Below, piece by piece: positions 10,260-29,996 of a stretch of 64,000 nt of DNA. How positions within the stretch are numbered: the stretch's first letter is position 1; each line of letters starts with the position of its first letter. Both the position numbers and the translations under genes were made by a program. The notes beneath the pieces are model-generated. The model searched no databases. It worked only from the letters and a program-made list of their open reading frames with translations, and had not been told where the DNA came from. Origin of the DNA: Minisyncoccota bacterium (lineage in GTDB: Bacteria > Patescibacteriota > Minisyncoccia > Phycocordibacterales > UBA9973); contig JBAZRK010000002.1 of assembly GCA_041663005.1 (NCBI GenBank), positions 740-64,739 on the forward strand. Reading direction: 5' to 3'.

Positions 10260-11897
10260 TTAGTGCTGGTAGAAGCCTCGGGCCTCGGTGTCTGGTAGGA
10301 GGATTAAATTAACGCCGCGAGATTTGCAAAGCTCAATAACTTTTTCGTCGTTGACGGAGCCACTCGTCGAGAAAATTGTTTTAATTCCGCGATTTATGAG
10401 TACCTCTGGCGCATCCGGGAATGGGAAGAAGCTATCACTATAAGCTACGGCATTTTCTAAATCTGCCGGAAATTCGGACGTTGGACGTCCGAATTCTTGA
10501 CGTCCAACGTCCGAATTCTGGGAAAATCTCGCCGCATCATCGGCGCGAAGCAAGGCAAGCTTAGCTGCACCTACCCTGTCTTGCTGGCCAACGCCATTGC
10601 CATACAGTCGGCCATCTTTCACTATAGTTATAGTATTACTATTAGAAGTACTACCAACAGCCCAGGCTAAAATAACATCCTTTTCTTTTACCTCAGGCAC
10701 AAATGTATAGTTGGGTTGAACCATAAATCCTCCACGCACATATCGGAATCGCTTCGCTCCGTCGAGTGCCGACATCCCCGCTTTAGCTATCGCCCTGTTT
10801 TGTAAGAGTCTGCATTTACCTTTTTTGCGGGAAAGAATTTCTATTGCCTCAGGGGAGAATTCTGGTGCAGCAACGATGTCGAGCAAACGTCGCACACCTT
10901 CAGGCGAAAATTTATGAATTAGTTCGTCGGCAATTTTTTCATCCACAGGAAAATTAAGCATCACTGACCCGCCAAAAATTGCGCGCAGGTCCCCCTGAAG
11001 CATTCCATCGATAGCTTCTATATCGCTTGACCCCGTAGCCACACCGCAGGCGTTCCCGTGCTTGGCGCCGATGGCAACGAACGGAACTTCTCCCAGATTT
11101 TTCTCGAACCCCGCGCCGATGTGTGTCATTGTCTGCATCATTCTATCTACGTCACAAATGTTGTTGTAGCTCATCGGGCTTCCAGCCACGAGTTGCCAGT
11201 TCGCAATTGCAAGTTCGTCCACATTTTTAGTATCTAAATTTTTATACAAACTCGCTGGCTTCTGGTAGGCGTTCTCTCCGTACGCGCATTCGATATTCTT
11301 CTGCCCGAAAATTCCCTTGTACCCTTCCGCACTATGATACTCGCCGGAAATCGCGCCGTATCGCGCAATTATCATTTCCGCTTTTGCTGCTAAATTATTT
11401 AGAAATTCTTCACGATTTTCTTCACCGTCCTTGAGCCACTTTACCACCAGCGCCCGGTCCGAAACATCGCACACAGTTATGCGCCTGCCCTTGGCGCTGG
11501 CTCGGAGCATTGTGGGTCCGCCGATGTCGGTTTTCTCAATAACAGACTCGCGCGTAGCGTTCGGGTTTTTCGTTTCTTCCTCAAGCGGATACAAATCCAC
11601 GCACACAAGGTCAATCCAAGGAATTCCATATTTCTCAAGTTCGACGCGGTGCTCGGGAGTATCGAGTGCGAGCAATCCGCCGTGAATTTTCGGATTAAGA
11701 GTGAGGACTCGGTGCGAGAGAATCGGCGGCATTCCGGTAATTTCTGCGACGTCTGTCACCGGCAGGCCCGCCTCTGACAAGTGCTTCGCAGTGCCTCCGG
11801 AGGAAATTATTTTCCACCCCAGGCCCACCAACTCTTTGGCGAAATCGGCAATACCGTCTTTGTTATATACAGAAATTAATGCAGTTTTTTGGTTCAT
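10260..11897 (-). CDS. purH: Bifunctional AICAR formyltransferase / IMP cyclohydrolase PurH, carrying an in-frame repeat insertion
   Basis: N-terminal MGS-like/IMPCH domain and C-terminal AICARFT motifs (GIGAKHGNACG..., YSDSFFPFPD, C-terminal ...GFYQH). A 16-aa insert NSDVGRQEFGRPTSEF is encoded by 1.5 tandem REP copies. Confidence 0.93.
   Translation of the reverse strand: MNQKTALISVYNKDGIADFAKELVGLGWKIISSGGTAKHLSEAGLPVTDVAEITGMPPILSHRVLTLNPKIHGGLLALDTPEHRVELEKYGIPWIDLVCVDLYPLEEETKNPNATRESVIEKTDIGGPTMLRASAKGRRITVCDVSDRALVVKWLKDGEENREEFLNNLAAKAEMIIARYGAISGEYHSAEGYKGIFGQKNIECAYGENAYQKPASLYKNLDTKNVDELAIANWQLVAGSPMSYNNICDVDRMMQTMTHIGAGFEKNLGEVPFVAIGAKHGNACGVATGSSDIEAIDGMLQGDLRAIFGGSVMLNFPVDEKIADELIHKFSPEGVRRLLDIVAAPEFSPEAIEILSRKKGKCRLLQNRAIAKAGMSALDGAKRFRYVRGGFMVQPNYTFVPEVKEKDVILAWAVGSTSNSNTITIVKDGRLYGNGVGQQDRVGAAKLALLRADDAARFSQNSDVGRQEFGRPTSEFPADLENAVAYSDSFFPFPDAPEVLINRGIKTIFSTSGSVNDEKVIELCKSRGVNLILLPDTEARGFYQH
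10471..10518. repeat. REP-like palindromic repeat, 1.5 tandem copies, in frame inside purH
   Basis: AATTCGGACGTTGGACGTCCGAATTCTTGACGTCCAACGTCCGAATT. Core is 9-bp inverted arms TTCGGACGT/ACGTCCGAA. Confidence 0.85.
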
Positions 11898-14178: not shown

Positions 14179-17100
14179 TTAATTCAAATTATCTAATAAT
14201 TTATTAAACATATCAAGCAAGAGCTGGGCGTCGGTTTTAGAAATTTGTTTAGGTCTAGGTTTTTTGGAATCTGGTTTTGAAATTATCTTCTCCATCTTTA
14301 CCCTGAATTTTTCTGCCTTAAGTTTAGCTTTGTCGATTTTCCCTTGCGCTATCTTTTTGAGAATACTATCAATTTTGTTGTTGAATGCTTTGATTTTAGC
14401 GGGTGGTAGTTCTAAAGAATTGATAGTCGCCTTTACAATCTGCAGGTATAAAACAGGGTCGAACTGTTGTTTTGGTAAAATAGTAAAATCAGTTACGCCG
14501 TCACCGGTAACGTCAAGCTTTAGTTCAGGTACTTTCGTAGTATTATTTAGAGTAATTTCGGCCTGAGTTTGAGTTGTAACTGGTATGTCTAGAAAATAAG
14601 AAGTTGTACTAGTCTCGTTCGGCATAACTTGTTCTGATTCATAAGTGAAAGTTCCTACTCCTGTCCCCAAGAGTTTTACTTTATTAAATTCTTCTTCCGG
14701 CAAACTTATATATTTACCTTCGCCGAATTCCATATACGAACTGTTAACTATGTTTTCCTCGACATAACAAAAGTCGCTGTCTGCGGAACACACTTTACCA
14801 GTATGGTTACCCTCTGCATCATAAGCATCTAAGGTTATGGGGGAATGTATCGATAAACGAATTAAGTTAGAGGTATCAACTGGTTTTGAGTCTTTCAATA
14901 TATCATCTGTAACTATGCCCTCATTTTTTATTACAGATTTAAGCAGATTATTTAATTTATCAATTTCCAATATATTCTTATGTTCGTTTCTTGTATCGAA
15001 ATCCTTGTTTAGCTTTAAAAGATTCACCCAATATTTCTCCGCATTTTCATCAGTACTCATATAAAGCGCGCTGGGTTCAACTACTGTGCCATCGCCATCT
15101 TTGGTAAATCTTGGCCTTTGGTCCATAGTAAATGCGCAAACAAGCCCAGCACACGAAGATTGAGGATAATATTCAAAGCTCGCAATAGTATCGAGCCCCC
15201 AGCCCGCGACTTCGATGATGCGCAATGTTTCCGGTGGAACCCAAGCATCTATATCATTATGCAAATTCTCGGACTGAGCAAACAAATTTTCCGATAAAAC
15301 TATTGGTAGGTTAATTTGGTTAGCTGCCGGGTTTACTCTCCCCTCTTTGCCGAAAAGAAAATCTTTATACTCTTCGTAGGAGCTAATGGCGCTACCAAAT
15401 TTTTGAACCATCTTCGTGGTAACGTTTGATGGGATAGCGGTGTCGACAAAGGTGGCTGGTGAAGCGTTGAGCCTGTTTATATATTCTCGACTCGGCAGAA
15501 GGCTGAAGGCACTTCTCATATTTCGCCCGAGCTCTCGGGCATGCATTTCGTTCATCGACAATCCACCCAGTATGCGCTGATCGTAGCCGTGAAGCACAGC
15601 GGGCACGGCGCTCGCCGTACCTATCTGCGGAGACGCAACCAAGATTAACACATCGACACTGTCAATGAGGTTGTTTAGGCCCGCTTCTTTGTCCGCCTGT
15701 AATTTTTTTAGAAGTGCCTTGGCTAAAAGTCCGCCGTTGCTATGCGCGACGATTGTCACCTTTCCACTCCTAGAAGACTCAGCCAGTGATTGCAGAGTGT
15801 CCACAAGAGACTTATTTCCGTCTTCATATTGAGTCCCCTCATTTACGATTTCATCCACAGGTTGCCGCCAATCATATGCAAACAACAAATATTTTGTAAT
15901 TGTAATATCATCTACCAGGTTTCTCAGCATATCTACAAAACTTTTATAAATATTTTGTACCCCCAGACCTTTTTGTATTACATCACGGGTATAAACACCT
16001 GAATTTTTACTACTTCCATCGGAGTTTAGATATAATTTTTCTACATCTAAATTACGATTTGGTTCCCAAAGCTGATTTTCATTACCCCCGTCTGACAGGT
16101 ACAATCGACTCGCCTCAATCCCCGGTAAAAACAACACACTGGAACAACAAGAAACTGGTGGATAACTCTCAAGCCACGGCGTAAAAGAAACATTTCCGTA
16201 AATCGCTTCTCCTGCGCCCTCGGGGTTAAGCTCTTCGTGGTACGGCCCAGAGGCATCGCCCCACCAGTTCCCCCGAGCATCTACTTGGCTCGAGGGATAA
16301 TTTTCAACCGCAAAGACTAAAATTTCTGTAAAACTGCTTTCGGAAACAGCAACCTCTCCACCATAAACACTGACCCCGTAATTCGTATTTTCTATCTCCA
16401 CCTGCTTCAGATTCGCGCTCCCGCCATAAGCAGCAAAATCGCCCGAAGGGAATCCGGACAGAAGTGAATTCTCCAAACTAAGCGTCCCGCCATAAACTTC
16501 CACACCAGCATCAGAACCATTTTCAAACACCGCATCTGTGATAATGGCATCCCCGTCATAAATTCCTAGCGCTGAGCCGAAGCCAATATTGCCGACATCA
16601 ATGCCTGTAGCCTGAAGCAACCCGCCATACAGACCCAGGGCATCGCGAGAAATATTGCTCAAGATTACATTCTCCAGAACCAACTCCCCAAAGTATGCGG
16701 AGGCGCCTTCTTCCAAATTTTCAAAAGTCCCGCCAGTAATTTTGATATAGCTGTCACTATAGGCAGCTACCCCGTAGCCACCATCACTGATATTCAAATT
16801 TAGAAAACTGATGCTACTCTCTCCTGACGCTTGGATAGAACCGTTCGCATATTTTATAAAAATATTTTCTAGAGAGGATTCTGATCCTTCAAAATAAATC
16901 CCATCCCAATCCCCCACAAGCGGATCGCCCCAGTCAAAACTTTCGCATGTTTCCGGCAAGTCATTGCCCTCGTCATCAAAATCGCAAAAAGTTTCATTGT
17001 CCGTATCCATCACTTCGTCGTCATAAAAAGAAGTGAAATAAATAGGCTCGCTCTCGCTACCTTCGGCTTCAATCCTCCCCTCTGTAAAGATTTTTGCTCC

Positions 17101-17337: not shown

Positions 17338-17402
17338 AATTAATTATTGCATCCAGGCGCTAGTAAATAAAGTCTTGTATCCTCGAACCTGTGGAAAACT
17401 CA

Positions 17403-18101
17403 TCATTCGGACGTTGGACGTCCGAATGTGGGCGATGGGTCATCCTCGATATTTTCAAGGCCCCTCTCTGCGCGAACAAACGAAACAACGTTTAAACATT
17501 CTTTTTTATAATTTTCATTGCCTCCATAAAACTCGAGGACCTCTCCTGCTTCTTTCTCGCTAACTAGTATGAAATTTTTAGTATCGTATTCTTTTTCGCT
17601 AGACAAGACCAGGTGCATTCTTTCCTTTGGTATATTGTGAACCATATAATTAACATGCACGTAAGGACGAATTTTTAAAAAATAGGGCTCGTCGTCTATT
17701 AACTGTGATTTAAATCGCCCCTGGAACAAAGCACCGGTCCTGCTGTGTACCAGATTGAAGTATTTTGTATAACCTCCGAGCAAACGTTTGAAAAACTCGG
17801 AGATTCCGCCATCCACCTCCTGCTTTAAAATAAAATGAAAGTGGTTGGGGTTAAAGCAGTATGCAACAATAGACACCAGCGGATTCGGACGTCCAACGTC
17901 CGAATCCGCTGGTTTTTTGTGTTTTTTATCTTTAATGCTCCCTATCGGCACAACTGAGTTGAACTCTTTTGCGCTTAGGGCAAAACGGTCTAAGTCTTTC
18001 TTGCTGGAAAAAATATCCCGCTTATCCACACCCCTGTTGTAGATATGATAATACTCCCTGGTTACGAGAGGGTCTTTCCTCATATCTATATTATAAAGCA
18101 A
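17403..18101 (-). CDS. IS200-like HuH Y1 transposase, probable REP-associated tyrosine transposase (RAYT)
   Basis: YYHIYNRGVDKRDIF (COG1943/RayT-type N-terminus), HuH motif HFHFIL, GALFQGRF, and a C-terminal Tyr-bearing segment RPYVHVNYMVHNIPKE. Flanked by inverted REP copies. One REP is in frame internally (ADSDVGRPNP) and another forms the C-terminus and stop (FGRPTSE*). Confidence 0.7.
   Translation of the reverse strand: MLYNIDMRKDPLVTREYYHIYNRGVDKRDIFSSKKDLDRFALSAKEFNSVVPIGSIKDKKHKKPADSDVGRPNPLVSIVAYCFNPNHFHFILKQEVDGGISEFFKRLLGGYTKYFNLVHSRTGALFQGRFKSQLIDDEPYFLKIRPYVHVNYMVHNIPKERMHLVLSSEKEYDTKNFILVSEKEAGEVLEFYGGNENYKKECLNVVSFVRAERGLENIEDDPSPTFGRPTSE
17405..17427. repeat. REP copy (loop TTGGA) at the 3' end of the RAYT gene
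   Basis: ATTCGGACGTTGGACGTCCGAAT. Confidence 0.85.
17881..17907. repeat. REP copy inside the RAYT coding sequence
   Basis: GGATTCGGACGTCCAACGTCCGAATCC, a 27-nt perfect palindrome. Confidence 0.85.
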
Positions 18102-18119
18102 TTCGGACGTCCAACGTCC

Positions 18120-18144
18120 GAATTAAGCAACTTGGGTGTGGAAA
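18120..18144. repeat. REP copy immediately upstream of the RAYT start
   Basis: AATTCGGACGTCCAACGTCCGAATT. Confidence 0.85.
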
Positions 18145-18166
18145 ACTCCCCATTCGGACGTTGGAC

Positions 18167-18196
18167 GTCCGAATGTTAGCGGGAGCGACGAGAGTC
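18167..18196. repeat. REP copy (extended CCCCATTCGG...CCGAATG)
   Basis: Opposite loop orientation (TTGGA). Overlaps the 3' end of CDS 18176..18517. Confidence 0.85.
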
Positions 18197-18517
18197 GCGG
18201 CTGCGATGAGAACTTCGGGGTTGATAATCGTAATAGTTATAACTATCGTAACGGAAGTATTCGAAGCTACTGTCTTCCCAGACGTAAGGATTGTAGCCAG
18301 TGACGCGAGCTACAGGATAACGGTCGTAATTGTTACGACCATAATAGTCATAAGAATACCCAGTAACGTAAGCGTCGTTCCTGTAATAATTATTTCTACT
18401 ATAAGTATAGTAACTGTCCTCATAGTATGCCACGGCAGAGCTCGCCCCAGTTGCCACAAGCAATAACATAATAAGCACTAGTGTAAAAATTTTCCTCATA
18501 GTATATCTGCCTTGCAA
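18176..18517 (-). CDS. Small secreted Tyr/Asn/Arg-rich low-complexity protein
   Basis: Signal peptide MRKIFTLVLIMLLLVATGASSAVA, then YY..Y..NNYYRN... low complexity. Flanked by REPs. Confidence 0.4.
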   Translation of the reverse strand: MQGRYTMRKIFTLVLIMLLLVATGASSAVAYYEDSYYTYSRNNYYRNDAYVTGYSYDYYGRNNYDRYPVARVTGYNPYVWEDSSFEYFRYDSYNYYDYQPRSSHRSRDSRRSR

Positions 18518-18554
18518 GTCTAGAAAAAATTACAAAGTCGGTTTAGAAAATGCT

Positions 18555-18579
18555 CATTCGGACGTCCAACGTCCGAATG
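18555..18579. repeat. REP copy
   Basis: CATTCGGACGTCCAACGTCCGAATG. Confidence 0.85.
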
Positions 18580-18583
18580 GGAA

Positions 18584-18778
18584 CTACGGGCGGTAGCCGT
18601 TTAGGAGGAGGATGACGAGGAGAATAACGAGAAAAAGGAGGGTCATATCGAACCAGTCGATCATAATCCCGTGCTTGGCCAGATGCTTCTTGAGCAACTT
18701 GTAGCCTTCGTTTATGACGAGGCCGGGAAAAATTATGATGGCAAACCATATTTTCATTACTATCTCCCACATATCCAC
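18584..18778 (-). CDS. Small two-TM membrane protein
   Basis: 64 aa with two hydrophobic helices. Sits between two REPs. Confidence 0.35.
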   Translation of the reverse strand: MDMWEIVMKIWFAIIIFPGLVINEGYKLLKKHLAKHGIMIDWFDMTLLFLVILLVILLLNGYRP

Positions 18779-18850
18779 ATTGTAGGGCTAAAGAGTTAAA
18801 AAAGCAAAACACAATCACCCAAACTCCCCTTCCATAAATAGCAACCTGGG

Positions 18851-18936
18851 CCCCATTCGGACGTCCAACGTCCGAATGGGGGTGATTTTTTGAGTTGAGG
18901 TAAAACAAAAAAACCACCCGTGAGGGGTGGTTTTTT
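18851..18936 (-). repeat. Composite ~90-bp repeat A: 31-nt perfect-palindrome REP (CCCCATTCGGACGTCCAACGTCCGAATGGGG) plus terminator CCACCCGTGAGGGGTGG-T6
   Basis: Direct repeat of 19576..19666 at about 85% identity. Acts as the terminator for the TA-like operon above it. Confidence 0.8.
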
Positions 18937-18940
18937 GAAG

Positions 18941-19177
18941 CTAGGCCATTAGAGGAGTACTGGAACTTATATTTATAGGAATCCCGTTTTTCAAATTTTC
19001 CTGAAGAGCGAGACCTTGCTTAGAAGAAGCATCTAAGAGCTCCATACCCACGACGTCTCCAGCAGAAGAAAGATCTACGACCAATCTGTCGTCTACCTTT
19101 ACTGATTTGGCAATTTTTTCACCATTTTTAATAGTGAAATAAATTGCATCTGCTACTGTATCATAATCTATTTTCAT
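18941..19177 (-). CDS. DUF2283-family small protein, antitoxin-like partner
   Basis: MKIDYDTVADAIYFTI...VDLSSAGDVVGMELLDAS matches the DUF2283 pattern (MKI.YD...D.LYI...G.ivGIEiL.AS). Confidence 0.75.
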   Translation of the reverse strand: MKIDYDTVADAIYFTIKNGEKIAKSVKVDDRLVVDLSSAGDVVGMELLDASSKQGLALQENLKNGIPINISSSTPLMA

Positions 19178-19416: not shown

Positions 19417-19575
19417 TTAAGTAATTATACTACCTTTAGCTCCTAATCAATAGACGCTGTGCATACATATTCCTTACAGCTGATATCTGCTCATAATACT
19501 GATTTTGGATCTATTGTCAACCAGGGAAGAGAGCGCCCCCGGGCGGGTGAAGATGGAAAAAAAGGGGGTCAAAAA

Positions 19576-19666
19576 CCCCATTCGGACGTCCAACGTCCGA
19601 ATGGGGTGGTTTTGAGGGCTGGGGGGAGAAAACAAAAAGCCACCCGGTGAGGGGTGGCTTTTTTTA
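19576..19666 (-). repeat. Composite ~90-bp repeat B (REP plus terminator GCCACCCGGTGAGGGGTGGC-T7)
   Basis: Second copy of the composite module. Terminator for CDS 19711..21429. Confidence 0.8.
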
Positions 19667-19710
19667 CCTCGCCCACAAGTCCGACTTGTGGGAATGAGGA
19701 GTTAGCTGAT

Positions 19711-29926: not shown

Positions 29927-29996
29927 AGACGTCGGACAACAGGAATTCTAGTTGTCCGACGTCTCTTCGTTTTTCACGGACGTCCAACGTCCGAAA
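29927..29996. terminator. efp terminator hairpin AGACGTCGGACAAC...GTTGTCCGACGTCT followed by a partial REP (CGGACGTCCAACGTCCGAAA)
   Basis: Perfect 14-bp stem. REP-related arms (GACGTCGGAC). Lies between the convergent efp and rpsR genes. Confidence 0.6.

Follow-up and report, generated by a model that had tools for sequence, protein, structure and literature searches.

We describe a gene and a palindromic repeat that are found together in a 64,000-nt stretch of DNA from a Minisyncoccota bacterium (GenBank assembly GCA_041663005.1, contig JBAZRK010000002.1, positions 740 to 64,739; hereafter the window). With good confidence we interpret them as a REPtron-like module, in which the gene belongs to a Paceibacteria-wide family of class-2 TnpA_Y1 proteins, i.e. 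HuH/tyrosine single-stranded DNA (ssDNA) endonucleases of the RAYT type (REP-associated tyrosine transposases, where REP stands for repetitive extragenic palindrome). The original prediction, made from this DNA alone, of a RayT-like open reading frame (ORF) at 17403..18101 that is bracketed by its own palindrome is borne out, and the repeat is enriched nearby, with 7 of its 10 sites falling within 17.4-19.6 kb of the window.

The mechanical ORF (17403..18101, reverse strand) counts 232 codons and opens at TTG 18101. The likely start is the ATG at 18083, which defines a gene at 17403..18083(-) and a protein of 226 aa, and residue numbers are counted from it. A database protein starting at this ATG (P0001; 226 aa, 100% identical) is named 'transposase [Candidatus Paceibacterota bacterium]' at NCBI and 'REP element-mobilizing transposase RayT' at JGI, and this match agrees with the earlier impression of a genome resembling those of the candidate phyla radiation (CPR). 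The suggested comparison with Pfam PF01797 (Y1_Tnp) gave a match just at threshold (23.4 bits against a cut-off of 23, E 7e-5), which is marginal and spans only the part from HuH to Tyr, residues 76-149 of the 232-aa ORF; precomputed PF01797 hits are present on many homologs. The structure prediction that had also been suggested was run as an AlphaFold2 model from 59 homologs (pLDDT 83, pTM 0.79, with pLDDT below 50 limited to residues 57-64 and the final 14 residues), and it contains the predicted ferredoxin-like HuH fold, a C-terminal helix bearing the Tyr, and a helical C-terminal domain at about residues 150-210. The link of the family to RAYTs comes solely through fold comparison, where the structures 2VJV and 4ER8 turned up.

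Invariant in 59 sequences are H81 and H83 (NPNHFHF), 'FQ' at 120-121, and Y141 and N145 (PYVHVNY), and translated homologs conserve these residues just as well, at identities down to 44%. The spacing from H81-F-H83 to Y141 is 58 residues. In class-2 TnpA_Y1 proteins, the catalytic Y belongs to a Y---NP helix that comes after a W/F-Q motif and lies 58-67 residues past HuH (Quentin 2018, PMC6006769). The QGRF segment, which had raised the suspicion of a partly degenerate protein, is thus the normal 'FQ' motif of this class (PMC6006769), and all invariant residues are intact; the later tyrosine of YVHVNY, mentioned then as an alternative, is the expected catalytic one. By motif and fold, rather than by residue-level superposition, Y141 would be the nucleophile, and by analogy H81 and H83 would hold the metal. 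Together, the predicted fold and the conserved residues suggest a putative hairpin-specific ssDNA endonuclease/transposase activity. The protein family comprises at least 7,882 clusters at 90% identity, and all source names among the matches listed are those of Paceibacteria/Parcubacteria lineages.

The palindrome itself is a 23-mer, ATTCGGACGTCCAACGTCCGAAT, with a 3-nt loop (CCA/TGG) and arms of 10 bp rather than the 9 bp initially given. Most copies have arms lengthened to 11-15 bp, and those of the internal copy measure 18 bp. Exact 23-mers in either loop orientation are located at 10472, 17405, 17883, 18101, 18152, 18556, 18855 and 19580, while none is expected by chance (100 shuffles). 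The 17-nt core adds the sites at 10497 (2 mismatches) and 29977, so that a total of 10 sites, consistent with the earlier count of at least 9, compares with 0.05 expected. REP copies account for half of the perfect hairpins of at least 9 bp in the window, and the remaining ones are A-run/T-run terminators of unrelated sequences.

Two copies are part of the coding frame. The internal in-frame hairpin occupies 17875..17913 (23-mer at 17883-17905; perfect 18-bp arms; dG -24.2 kcal/mol, z -9.9), and the 3' hairpin occupies 17404..17428 (23-mer at 17405-17427), codes for TFGRPTSE and ends with the T of the TGA stop codon; the in-frame ADSDVGRPNP and the C-terminal FGRPTSE-TGA were thus described accurately. 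Two further copies are indeed present upstream, at 18101-18123 and 18152-18174 instead of 18120 and 18167, a shift of 15-19 nt. The proximal hairpin (18100..18124) lies directly 5' of a TATAAT -10-like box (18090..18095 on the reverse strand, 6 nt ahead of ATG 18083, read from the sequence) and takes the place of a -35 element; a consensus promoter scan did not call this box, there being no TTGACA-like -35. The distal hairpin (18151..18175) has the orientation and flanks of the 3' copy, and both are followed by TTTTCCACA, a match to the DnaA-box consensus TTWTNCACA (18137-18145 beside the distal hairpin; 17390..17398 on the reverse strand, 6 nt past the 3' hairpin). The resulting 45-nt direct repeats at 18137-18181 and 17390-17434, each of a hairpin plus TTTTCCACA, are 91% identical. 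A TTWTNCACA 9-mer, often exactly TTATCCACA, is found in gene orientation 8-20 nt past the distal upstream and 3' hairpins throughout the clade of at least 71% identity (window, L003, L005, L012, L013, L015, L019).

For comparison we used 80 homologous loci from metagenomes, three from genomes, and six more obtained via protein look-ups. In the window, the internal hairpin codes for residues 57-70 (KPADSDVGRPNPLV) between helix A and strand 2, about 11-24 residues ahead of HuH, and these residues are predicted to form a disordered surface loop. In the alignment, the place of ADSDVGRPNP is taken in the closest homologs by SDVGRP, SDVQRP, SGVGHP or SGVQHP, and at the DNA level all these peptide variants represent one palindrome, with either a flipped loop (G/Q) or compensatory changes in the arms (D->G with R->H). 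A search of the codons 4-30 residues before the HuH motif revealed a perfect hairpin of at least 7 bp in 54 loci; this zone folds at -12 kcal/mol or lower in 66 of 78 loci, with a mean of -19.4 kcal/mol as compared to -9.0 kcal/mol for other windows of the same genes. The 66 loci with a hairpin at this one fixed position span 44-100% protein identity, and their internal cores vary, including CGGACGT-tgg, CGGGTGT-cca, CCAGATAGCGCC-taa, GTGAGAGC-tttag, CTGTAGACGT-ccg, TTGGCGGT-tta and CACCAACTTGGAAAC-cag. Judging from its distribution over these sequences, the in-frame hairpin is ancestral to the family; given this, its fixed position and the compensatory changes, the idea that the gene has recently been invaded by its own repeat is not sustained.

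The conservation of the structure can be followed pair by pair. Aligned on their loops, 44 distinct internal hairpins score 0.651 for covariation; shuffles give 0.191 +/- 0.015 (0 of 500 reach the score) and slid partners at most 0.141. The rows of this set were picked for having a hairpin and were centred on it, an ascertainment bias that makes the percentage of pairing partly a product of construction, while the number of pair types, the fixed position in the protein and the findings on the module described below are not. Watson-Crick pairing is about 100% for the nine inner pairs, each with 2-4 pair types, and the fifth position from the loop is invariably a G-C pair in the same orientation. 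In close relatives the outer stem co-varies within the coding sequence (CAGCGG/CCGCTG, CAGAGG/CCTCTG, CAAGAGG/CCTCTTG, AAGCCCCG/CGGGGCTT), with an amino acid altered by one arm and a synonymous change in the other. Internal stems are often 16-20 bp, longer than those of the flanking copies. The peptides SDVGRP, GRPTSE, QIAPKALS and others are footprints of the DNA structure, not protein motifs. Additional internal copies were also observed: L068 and L084 have a second in-frame hairpin directly after the catalytic-Tyr helix (...VHRFGRPTPK... and ...VHQLGGLTAKL...), and L022 has two adjacent internal copies.

The internal hairpin is one element of a constant layout. Perfect hairpins of at least 8 bp, mapped in 35 loci, are confined to three zones at -60..-20, +160..+200 and +660..+700 relative to the start. 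The internal core recurs upstream, 35-60 nt before the start, in 38 of 41 loci and at the 3' end in 39 of 42, whereas non-cognate cores (at least 3 differences) match in about 5% of cases; altogether, 29 distinct 8-nt cores were found. The upstream copy is situated directly 5' of an extended -10 promoter, whose box in many homologs reads TGnTATACT and ends 6-9 nt before the ATG, therefore the mRNA is probably leaderless or near-leaderless, with the hairpin in the -35 position. The 3' copy overlaps the stop codon or comes right after it. Only in the window genome does the frame read into the 3' hairpin (FGRPTSE), as close homologs stop 4-14 nt before it, and in a clade of about 50% identity the loop TAA/TGA/TAG itself is the stop codon (CCA GAT AGC GCC TAA GGCGCTATCTGG), with the internal copy of that clade being read in another frame (CAG ATA GCG CCT AAG GCG CTA TCT = QIAPKALS). 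The second, distal upstream copy is present in the clade of at least 71% identity, the window included.

Non-coding copies have random loop orientation, with 18 same and 16 flipped in 19 loci where an internal flip would make a stop codon, and both orientations of the internal loop are common where both are sense (DVGRP 39 and DVQRP 25, GVGHP 15 and GVQHP 21, in 200 proteins). Therefore, loops flip freely and selection removes only those flips that break the frame. A uniform loop orientation of the three hairpins, as at the ends of IS608, was also considered and was rejected by the random orientation of the non-coding copies. Syntenic orthologs carry unlike cores (CGGACGT, CGGGTGT, CCAGGTGT, CCCGACGT), and the ortholog in L093 (protein P0084) has the core GTCGGGTGT; therefore, as read from these alignments, the copies of one locus change together in place.

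The gene is single-copy in the window, and its flanking genes are conserved on the same sides in loci of 60-86% protein identity. The gene order RAYT - large surface protein - rplJ - rplL - purH is common to the window and L093, a 600-kb contig whose RAYT protein is 72% identical to that of the window. No tnpB-sized ORF adjoins the gene at the window locus. One Nomurabacteria genome has two divergent paralogs in different housekeeping neighbourhoods and with different cores. Low copy number and divergent paralogs are characteristic of class-2 TnpA_Y1, and near-identical copies of IS200 (PMC6006769); on sequence comparison, the observed paralog pattern matches the former and not the latter. Since the gene is single-copy and syntenic, we conclude that the module is a domesticated one of RAYT type rather than an insertion sequence (IS).

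The dispersed copies have the core of their own genome. The window contains 9 copies of the CGGACGT core (at most 1 mismatch per arm) and 0 of CGGGTGT, and the 20.7 kb of L093 contain 8 copies of CGGGTGT, five of them outside the module, and 0 of CGGACGT. Most copies in the window are singletons. Six copies in the 64 kb lie outside the module, namely three extragenic copies within 1.6 kb upstream (18555..18579, a 23-mer match; 18851..18881, with 14-bp arms owing to a CCCC/GGGG extension; 19575..19607, with 15-bp arms, downstream of a Big_12 gene), a core-only copy with 7-bp arms (29977..29993, 54 nt downstream of efp), and an inverted doublet inside purH. The latter (10472..10519, in purH at 10260-11897 on the reverse strand) is in frame, encodes residues about 460-476 (QNSDVGRQEFGRPTSEF) just before the conserved ADLENAVAYSDSFFPF, and folds as a 19-bp REPIN-like stem (dG -23.6 kcal/mol, z -7.6), i.e. 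two inverted REPs form one long hairpin as in a REPIN; similar doublets are present in L004 and L006.

The purH site was compared at the protein level in 120 orthologs from Paceibacteria (68-78% identical) and at the DNA level in one genome (L093). In about half of the orthologs this loop is empty, which answers the earlier call for a presence/absence comparison at orthologous sites. The remainder contain GRPTSE, either alone or in a doublet (SDVGRP..GRPTSE), GGLTAKS, as encoded by the TTGGCGGT-tta hairpin, inserts of the PKAL type, or palindromes of greater length, and the protein length ranges from 521 to 601 aa. By this comparison the purH loop looks like a hot spot of palindrome insertion. 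The purH of L093 (15449-17125) has at the same site an unrelated palindrome of ~76 nt (GATCAGCAGGTAAATTTTG...CAAAATCTACCTGCTGATC), and a near-copy of its own RAYT core is located elsewhere in that gene, at 16330. In-frame doublets of the 23-mer family were also observed in a gatC-like ORF of a Nomurabacteria genome (L004:909-950; ...KEDSDVGRPNFGRPTSEIQ...) and in a parB-like ORF of another Paceibacterota genome (L006:1972-2010; ...PRQEFGRPTSELE...).

Both IS608 TnpA and the E. coli RAYT bind hairpins on ssDNA, and cut and rejoin the strand next to the hairpin. By analogy, the window protein would bind its hairpin on ssDNA, for example on the lagging-strand template, and would cut and rejoin alongside, with H81/H83 holding the metal and Y141 acting as the nucleophile. 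Such activity and/or gene conversion between copies would spread and homogenise the palindromes. The invariant oriented G-C pair suggests one base-specific contact, and the remaining stem positions would vary in step with the protein. The probable role of the promoter copy is to shield the gene from read-through or to allow auto-repression; the internal copy would be tolerated since it encodes a surface loop, and it may lower expression or serve as a deletion-proof master copy. A stronger version of this model, which we put forward tentatively and consider possible rather than probable, holds that the in-frame copy is an obligatory functional substrate which, together with the copies at the promoter and the stop codon, makes a self-addressed nuclease gene with gene and repeat inseparable, the embedded hairpin being a cis attenuator of expression or a deletion-proof master copy for re-seeding and homogenising the genome-specific palindromes. 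If this is true, the palindromes of gene-dense CPR genomes would mostly reach protein loops that tolerate them, the purH hot spot being an example.

The main rival reading leaves the rest of the REP-RAYT picture standing, and explains the internal hairpin as a neutral passenger with no function, an old REP insertion in a permissive loop whose likeness to the flanking copies is due only to gene conversion or re-copying. We regard this as a real possibility, although we would not bet on it. It accounts well for the predicted disorder of the encoded residues, for the free flipping of the loop in both pairs of sense peptides (DVGRP 39 vs DVQRP 25, GVGHP 15 vs GVQHP 21), and for the harmless presence of similar repeats in loops of purH and of the gatC-like and parB-like genes. 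It is further favored by a subclade that is 61-67% identical to the window protein (L016, L017, L018, L020, L021), which has no internal and proximal hairpins, and in which the gene is intact and strong cognate hairpins are kept about 165 nt upstream and past the stop. However, the maintenance of one fixed position in 66 of 78 loci at 44-100% protein identity, and of stems that are often longer (16-20 bp) than the flanking ones by means of compensatory substitutions that alter the amino acids, would hardly be expected unless the structure is under selection.

The other alternatives concern the module as a whole. The 0.8-kb unit might be an autonomous IS200-like insertion sequence with the distal upstream and 3' hairpins as its left and right ends, as its compactness, the presence of the transposase gene only, the Y1 fold and the 45-nt direct repeats would suggest; since the gene is single-copy and syntenic, has the motif Y---N and not Y---Q, and is adjoined by no tnpB-sized ORF, this appears unlikely. 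Still less probable is that we are dealing with common terminators of transcription, or with regulatory RNA hairpins, that are unrelated to the protein and incidental in position. Several copies do lie just downstream of genes and were flagged as terminator-like by a consensus scan, and in those at 18851 and 19575 the extended stems are rich in G+C and lead into T-rich tracts, but the cores are genome- and locus-specific and co-vary with the gene across 29 core types, one copy is located upstream of the promoter and thus outside the gene's own transcript, and others are in frame within coding regions. The other terminators of the window are unrelated in sequence, and an Rfam scan of 16.5-20.5 kb gave generic hairpin matches below threshold only. 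Least credible of all is the view that the gene is a RAYT pseudogene in decay, into which its own repeat has moved recently. One could cite for it the frame running through the 3' hairpin and the residues added by the internal copy, but the frame is intact, all family-invariant residues are present, the model is confident and the internal hairpin is ancestral.

Several observations weigh against the REPtron-like interpretation of the module or limit its reach. The RAYT equivalog model of NCBIfam (NF047646, REP_Tyr_transpos) gave 24 bits, below its cut-off of 80, and PDB sequence searches with two family profiles found no transposase; by these two measures the family is remote from characterised RAYTs. 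The Y motif as aligned ends in NY/NN rather than NP, in that Y141-V-H-V-N145 is followed by Y (or N) in the place of P, with the Y and N of the class-2 signature conserved and the P not. Canonical REPs are imperfect hairpins that have at their foot an unpaired 5' tetranucleotide, GT[AG]G (or CGTC) (PMC6006769, PMC3733652), whereas a conserved GTAG/GTGG/CGTC tag is absent from the flanks of all 10 copies, whose stems are perfect palindromes continuing into the flanks. A kinship with the CGTC-tagged repeats (Di Nocera 2013, PMC3733652) was considered and rejected, because CGTC sits in the paired arm beside the loop and there is no unpaired tag. The internal copy is not indispensable, because one subclade has lost it and kept its flanking hairpins, and the selection of the covariation set has been mentioned above. 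The copies might evolve in concert through gene conversion alone, without the protein taking part. Finally, the flanks of the other loci have only 6 non-module copies in about 300 kb, and amplification of the repeat may be modest and variable, and weak in most lineages. In summary, the measured features are those of a RAYT/REPtron, and the departures from the canonical definition are two, the NCBIfam equivalog score and the GT[AG]G tag.

The surroundings of the module have further features. A composite direct repeat of ~100 nt (18851-18948 and 19576-19675; 77-78% identical) consists of a REP copy and an A-run/T-run terminator hairpin, CCACCC...GGGTGG, located at 18908-18936 in the first repeat and at 19634-19663 in the second. 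The two repeats bracket a DUF4258/DUF2283 gene pair (19416-18941), which, as our own suggestion, may be a toxin-antitoxin-like cassette. The ~1.35-kb stretch that includes this pair looks inserted, because in the syntenic locus L012 the Big_12-like and RAYT genes are separated by only about 275 nt. The ORF 18176..18517(-) of 113 aa, which is located between REP copies with its stop 2 nt from the distal upstream hairpin, has a signal-peptide-like N-terminus followed by Tyr/Asn/Arg/Asp-rich low-complexity sequence, and no Pfam match. In 18543-18917(-) and other short ORFs within 17.3-19.7 kb, peptides of the HSDVGRPN / IRTLDVRM type are the palindrome read in other frames; these ORFs are probably not genes and could mislead gene callers.

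Recognition and co-evolution of RAYTs and REPs have so far been argued mostly from Proteobacteria and from a single co-crystal structure. With at least 7,882 protein clusters, and at least 29 cores in 80 loci, the present family is a source of natural protein-hairpin pairs in the thousands, and the hairpin is written three times beside and inside the gene of its presumed reader, so that rules of specificity could be derived by covariation and tested with short oligonucleotides. It also demonstrates that symbioses of repeats and transposases persist in the smallest bacterial genomes, where repeats last because they can be translated. They lie within the frames of the RAYT gene, of purH, and of gatC-like and parB-like genes, and the loop of a hairpin can even supply the stop codon.

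Among the known systems, the E. coli TnpA_REP/RAYT and its REPtron (subclass 2.2; PDB 4ER8) share about 13% identity with the window protein. In contrast to E. coli, the palindromes of the window are perfect, with a 3-nt loop and without the GT[AG]G tag or bulge, one of them is in the reading frame and another at the stop codon, copy numbers are low, and the protein has an extra helical C-terminal domain of roughly 70 aa. In subclass 2.4 (Bertels group 4; Cyanobacteria/Bacteroidetes) cognate REPs occur in frame in tnpA_REP, in a peripheral variable region (Quentin 2018, PMC6006769). The likeness is in the cognate REPs inside a RAYT gene with its frame unbroken; the window hairpin differs by its place before HuH (between helix A and strand 2), its one fixed position and the three-site layout, and the protein has FQ and YVHVNY in place of the WQ and YIxNNP of subclass 2.4, which places it outside that subclass. 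The nearest motif pattern is that of subclass 2.1 or TIRYT (Bertels group 1), with NH[YF]H, FQ, Y[IV]HLNP, about 238 aa and a serine-containing tail (PMC6006769), as compared with NHFH, FQ, YVHVNY, 219-226 aa and an S-S-E-x-E-Y tail in the family described here, a placement made by motifs and not by phylogeny. Subclass 2.1 has been reported without REPs, with terminal inverted repeats and with a helix-turn-helix (HTH) tail like DnaA_C; the Pfam scan and fold comparison detected no DnaA-like domain in the window protein.

The IS200/IS608 elements (TnpA_IS200, subclass 1.1) resemble the window module in their Y1/HuH fold and in the subterminal hairpins beside a small transposase gene, and in IS200 a hairpin upstream of tnpA limits expression. 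Those elements are multi-copy and mobile, with Y---Q, roughly 150 aa, imperfect hairpins and no in-frame hairpin, whereas the window gene is syntenic and single-copy. The Rickettsia palindromic elements (RPE) are similar as short palindromes in frame in housekeeping genes of a reduced genome. REPs are known to occur within coding regions, and RPEs have been linked to CGTC-tagged repeats (Di Nocera 2013, PMC3733652). Neither of the latter has a dedicated transposase, unlike the system described here, in which each repeat family has a cognate RAYT-like gene bearing the same repeat. Literature searches for REPs and RAYTs in Parcubacteria/CPR found no description of this system. What appears to be new is a Paceibacteria-wide lineage absent from the published REP-RAYT surveys, an in-frame hairpin fixed before HuH within a constant layout of promoter, internal and stop-codon copies, and the combination of perfect untagged palindromes, stop codons encoded by hairpin loops and an insertion hot spot in purH.

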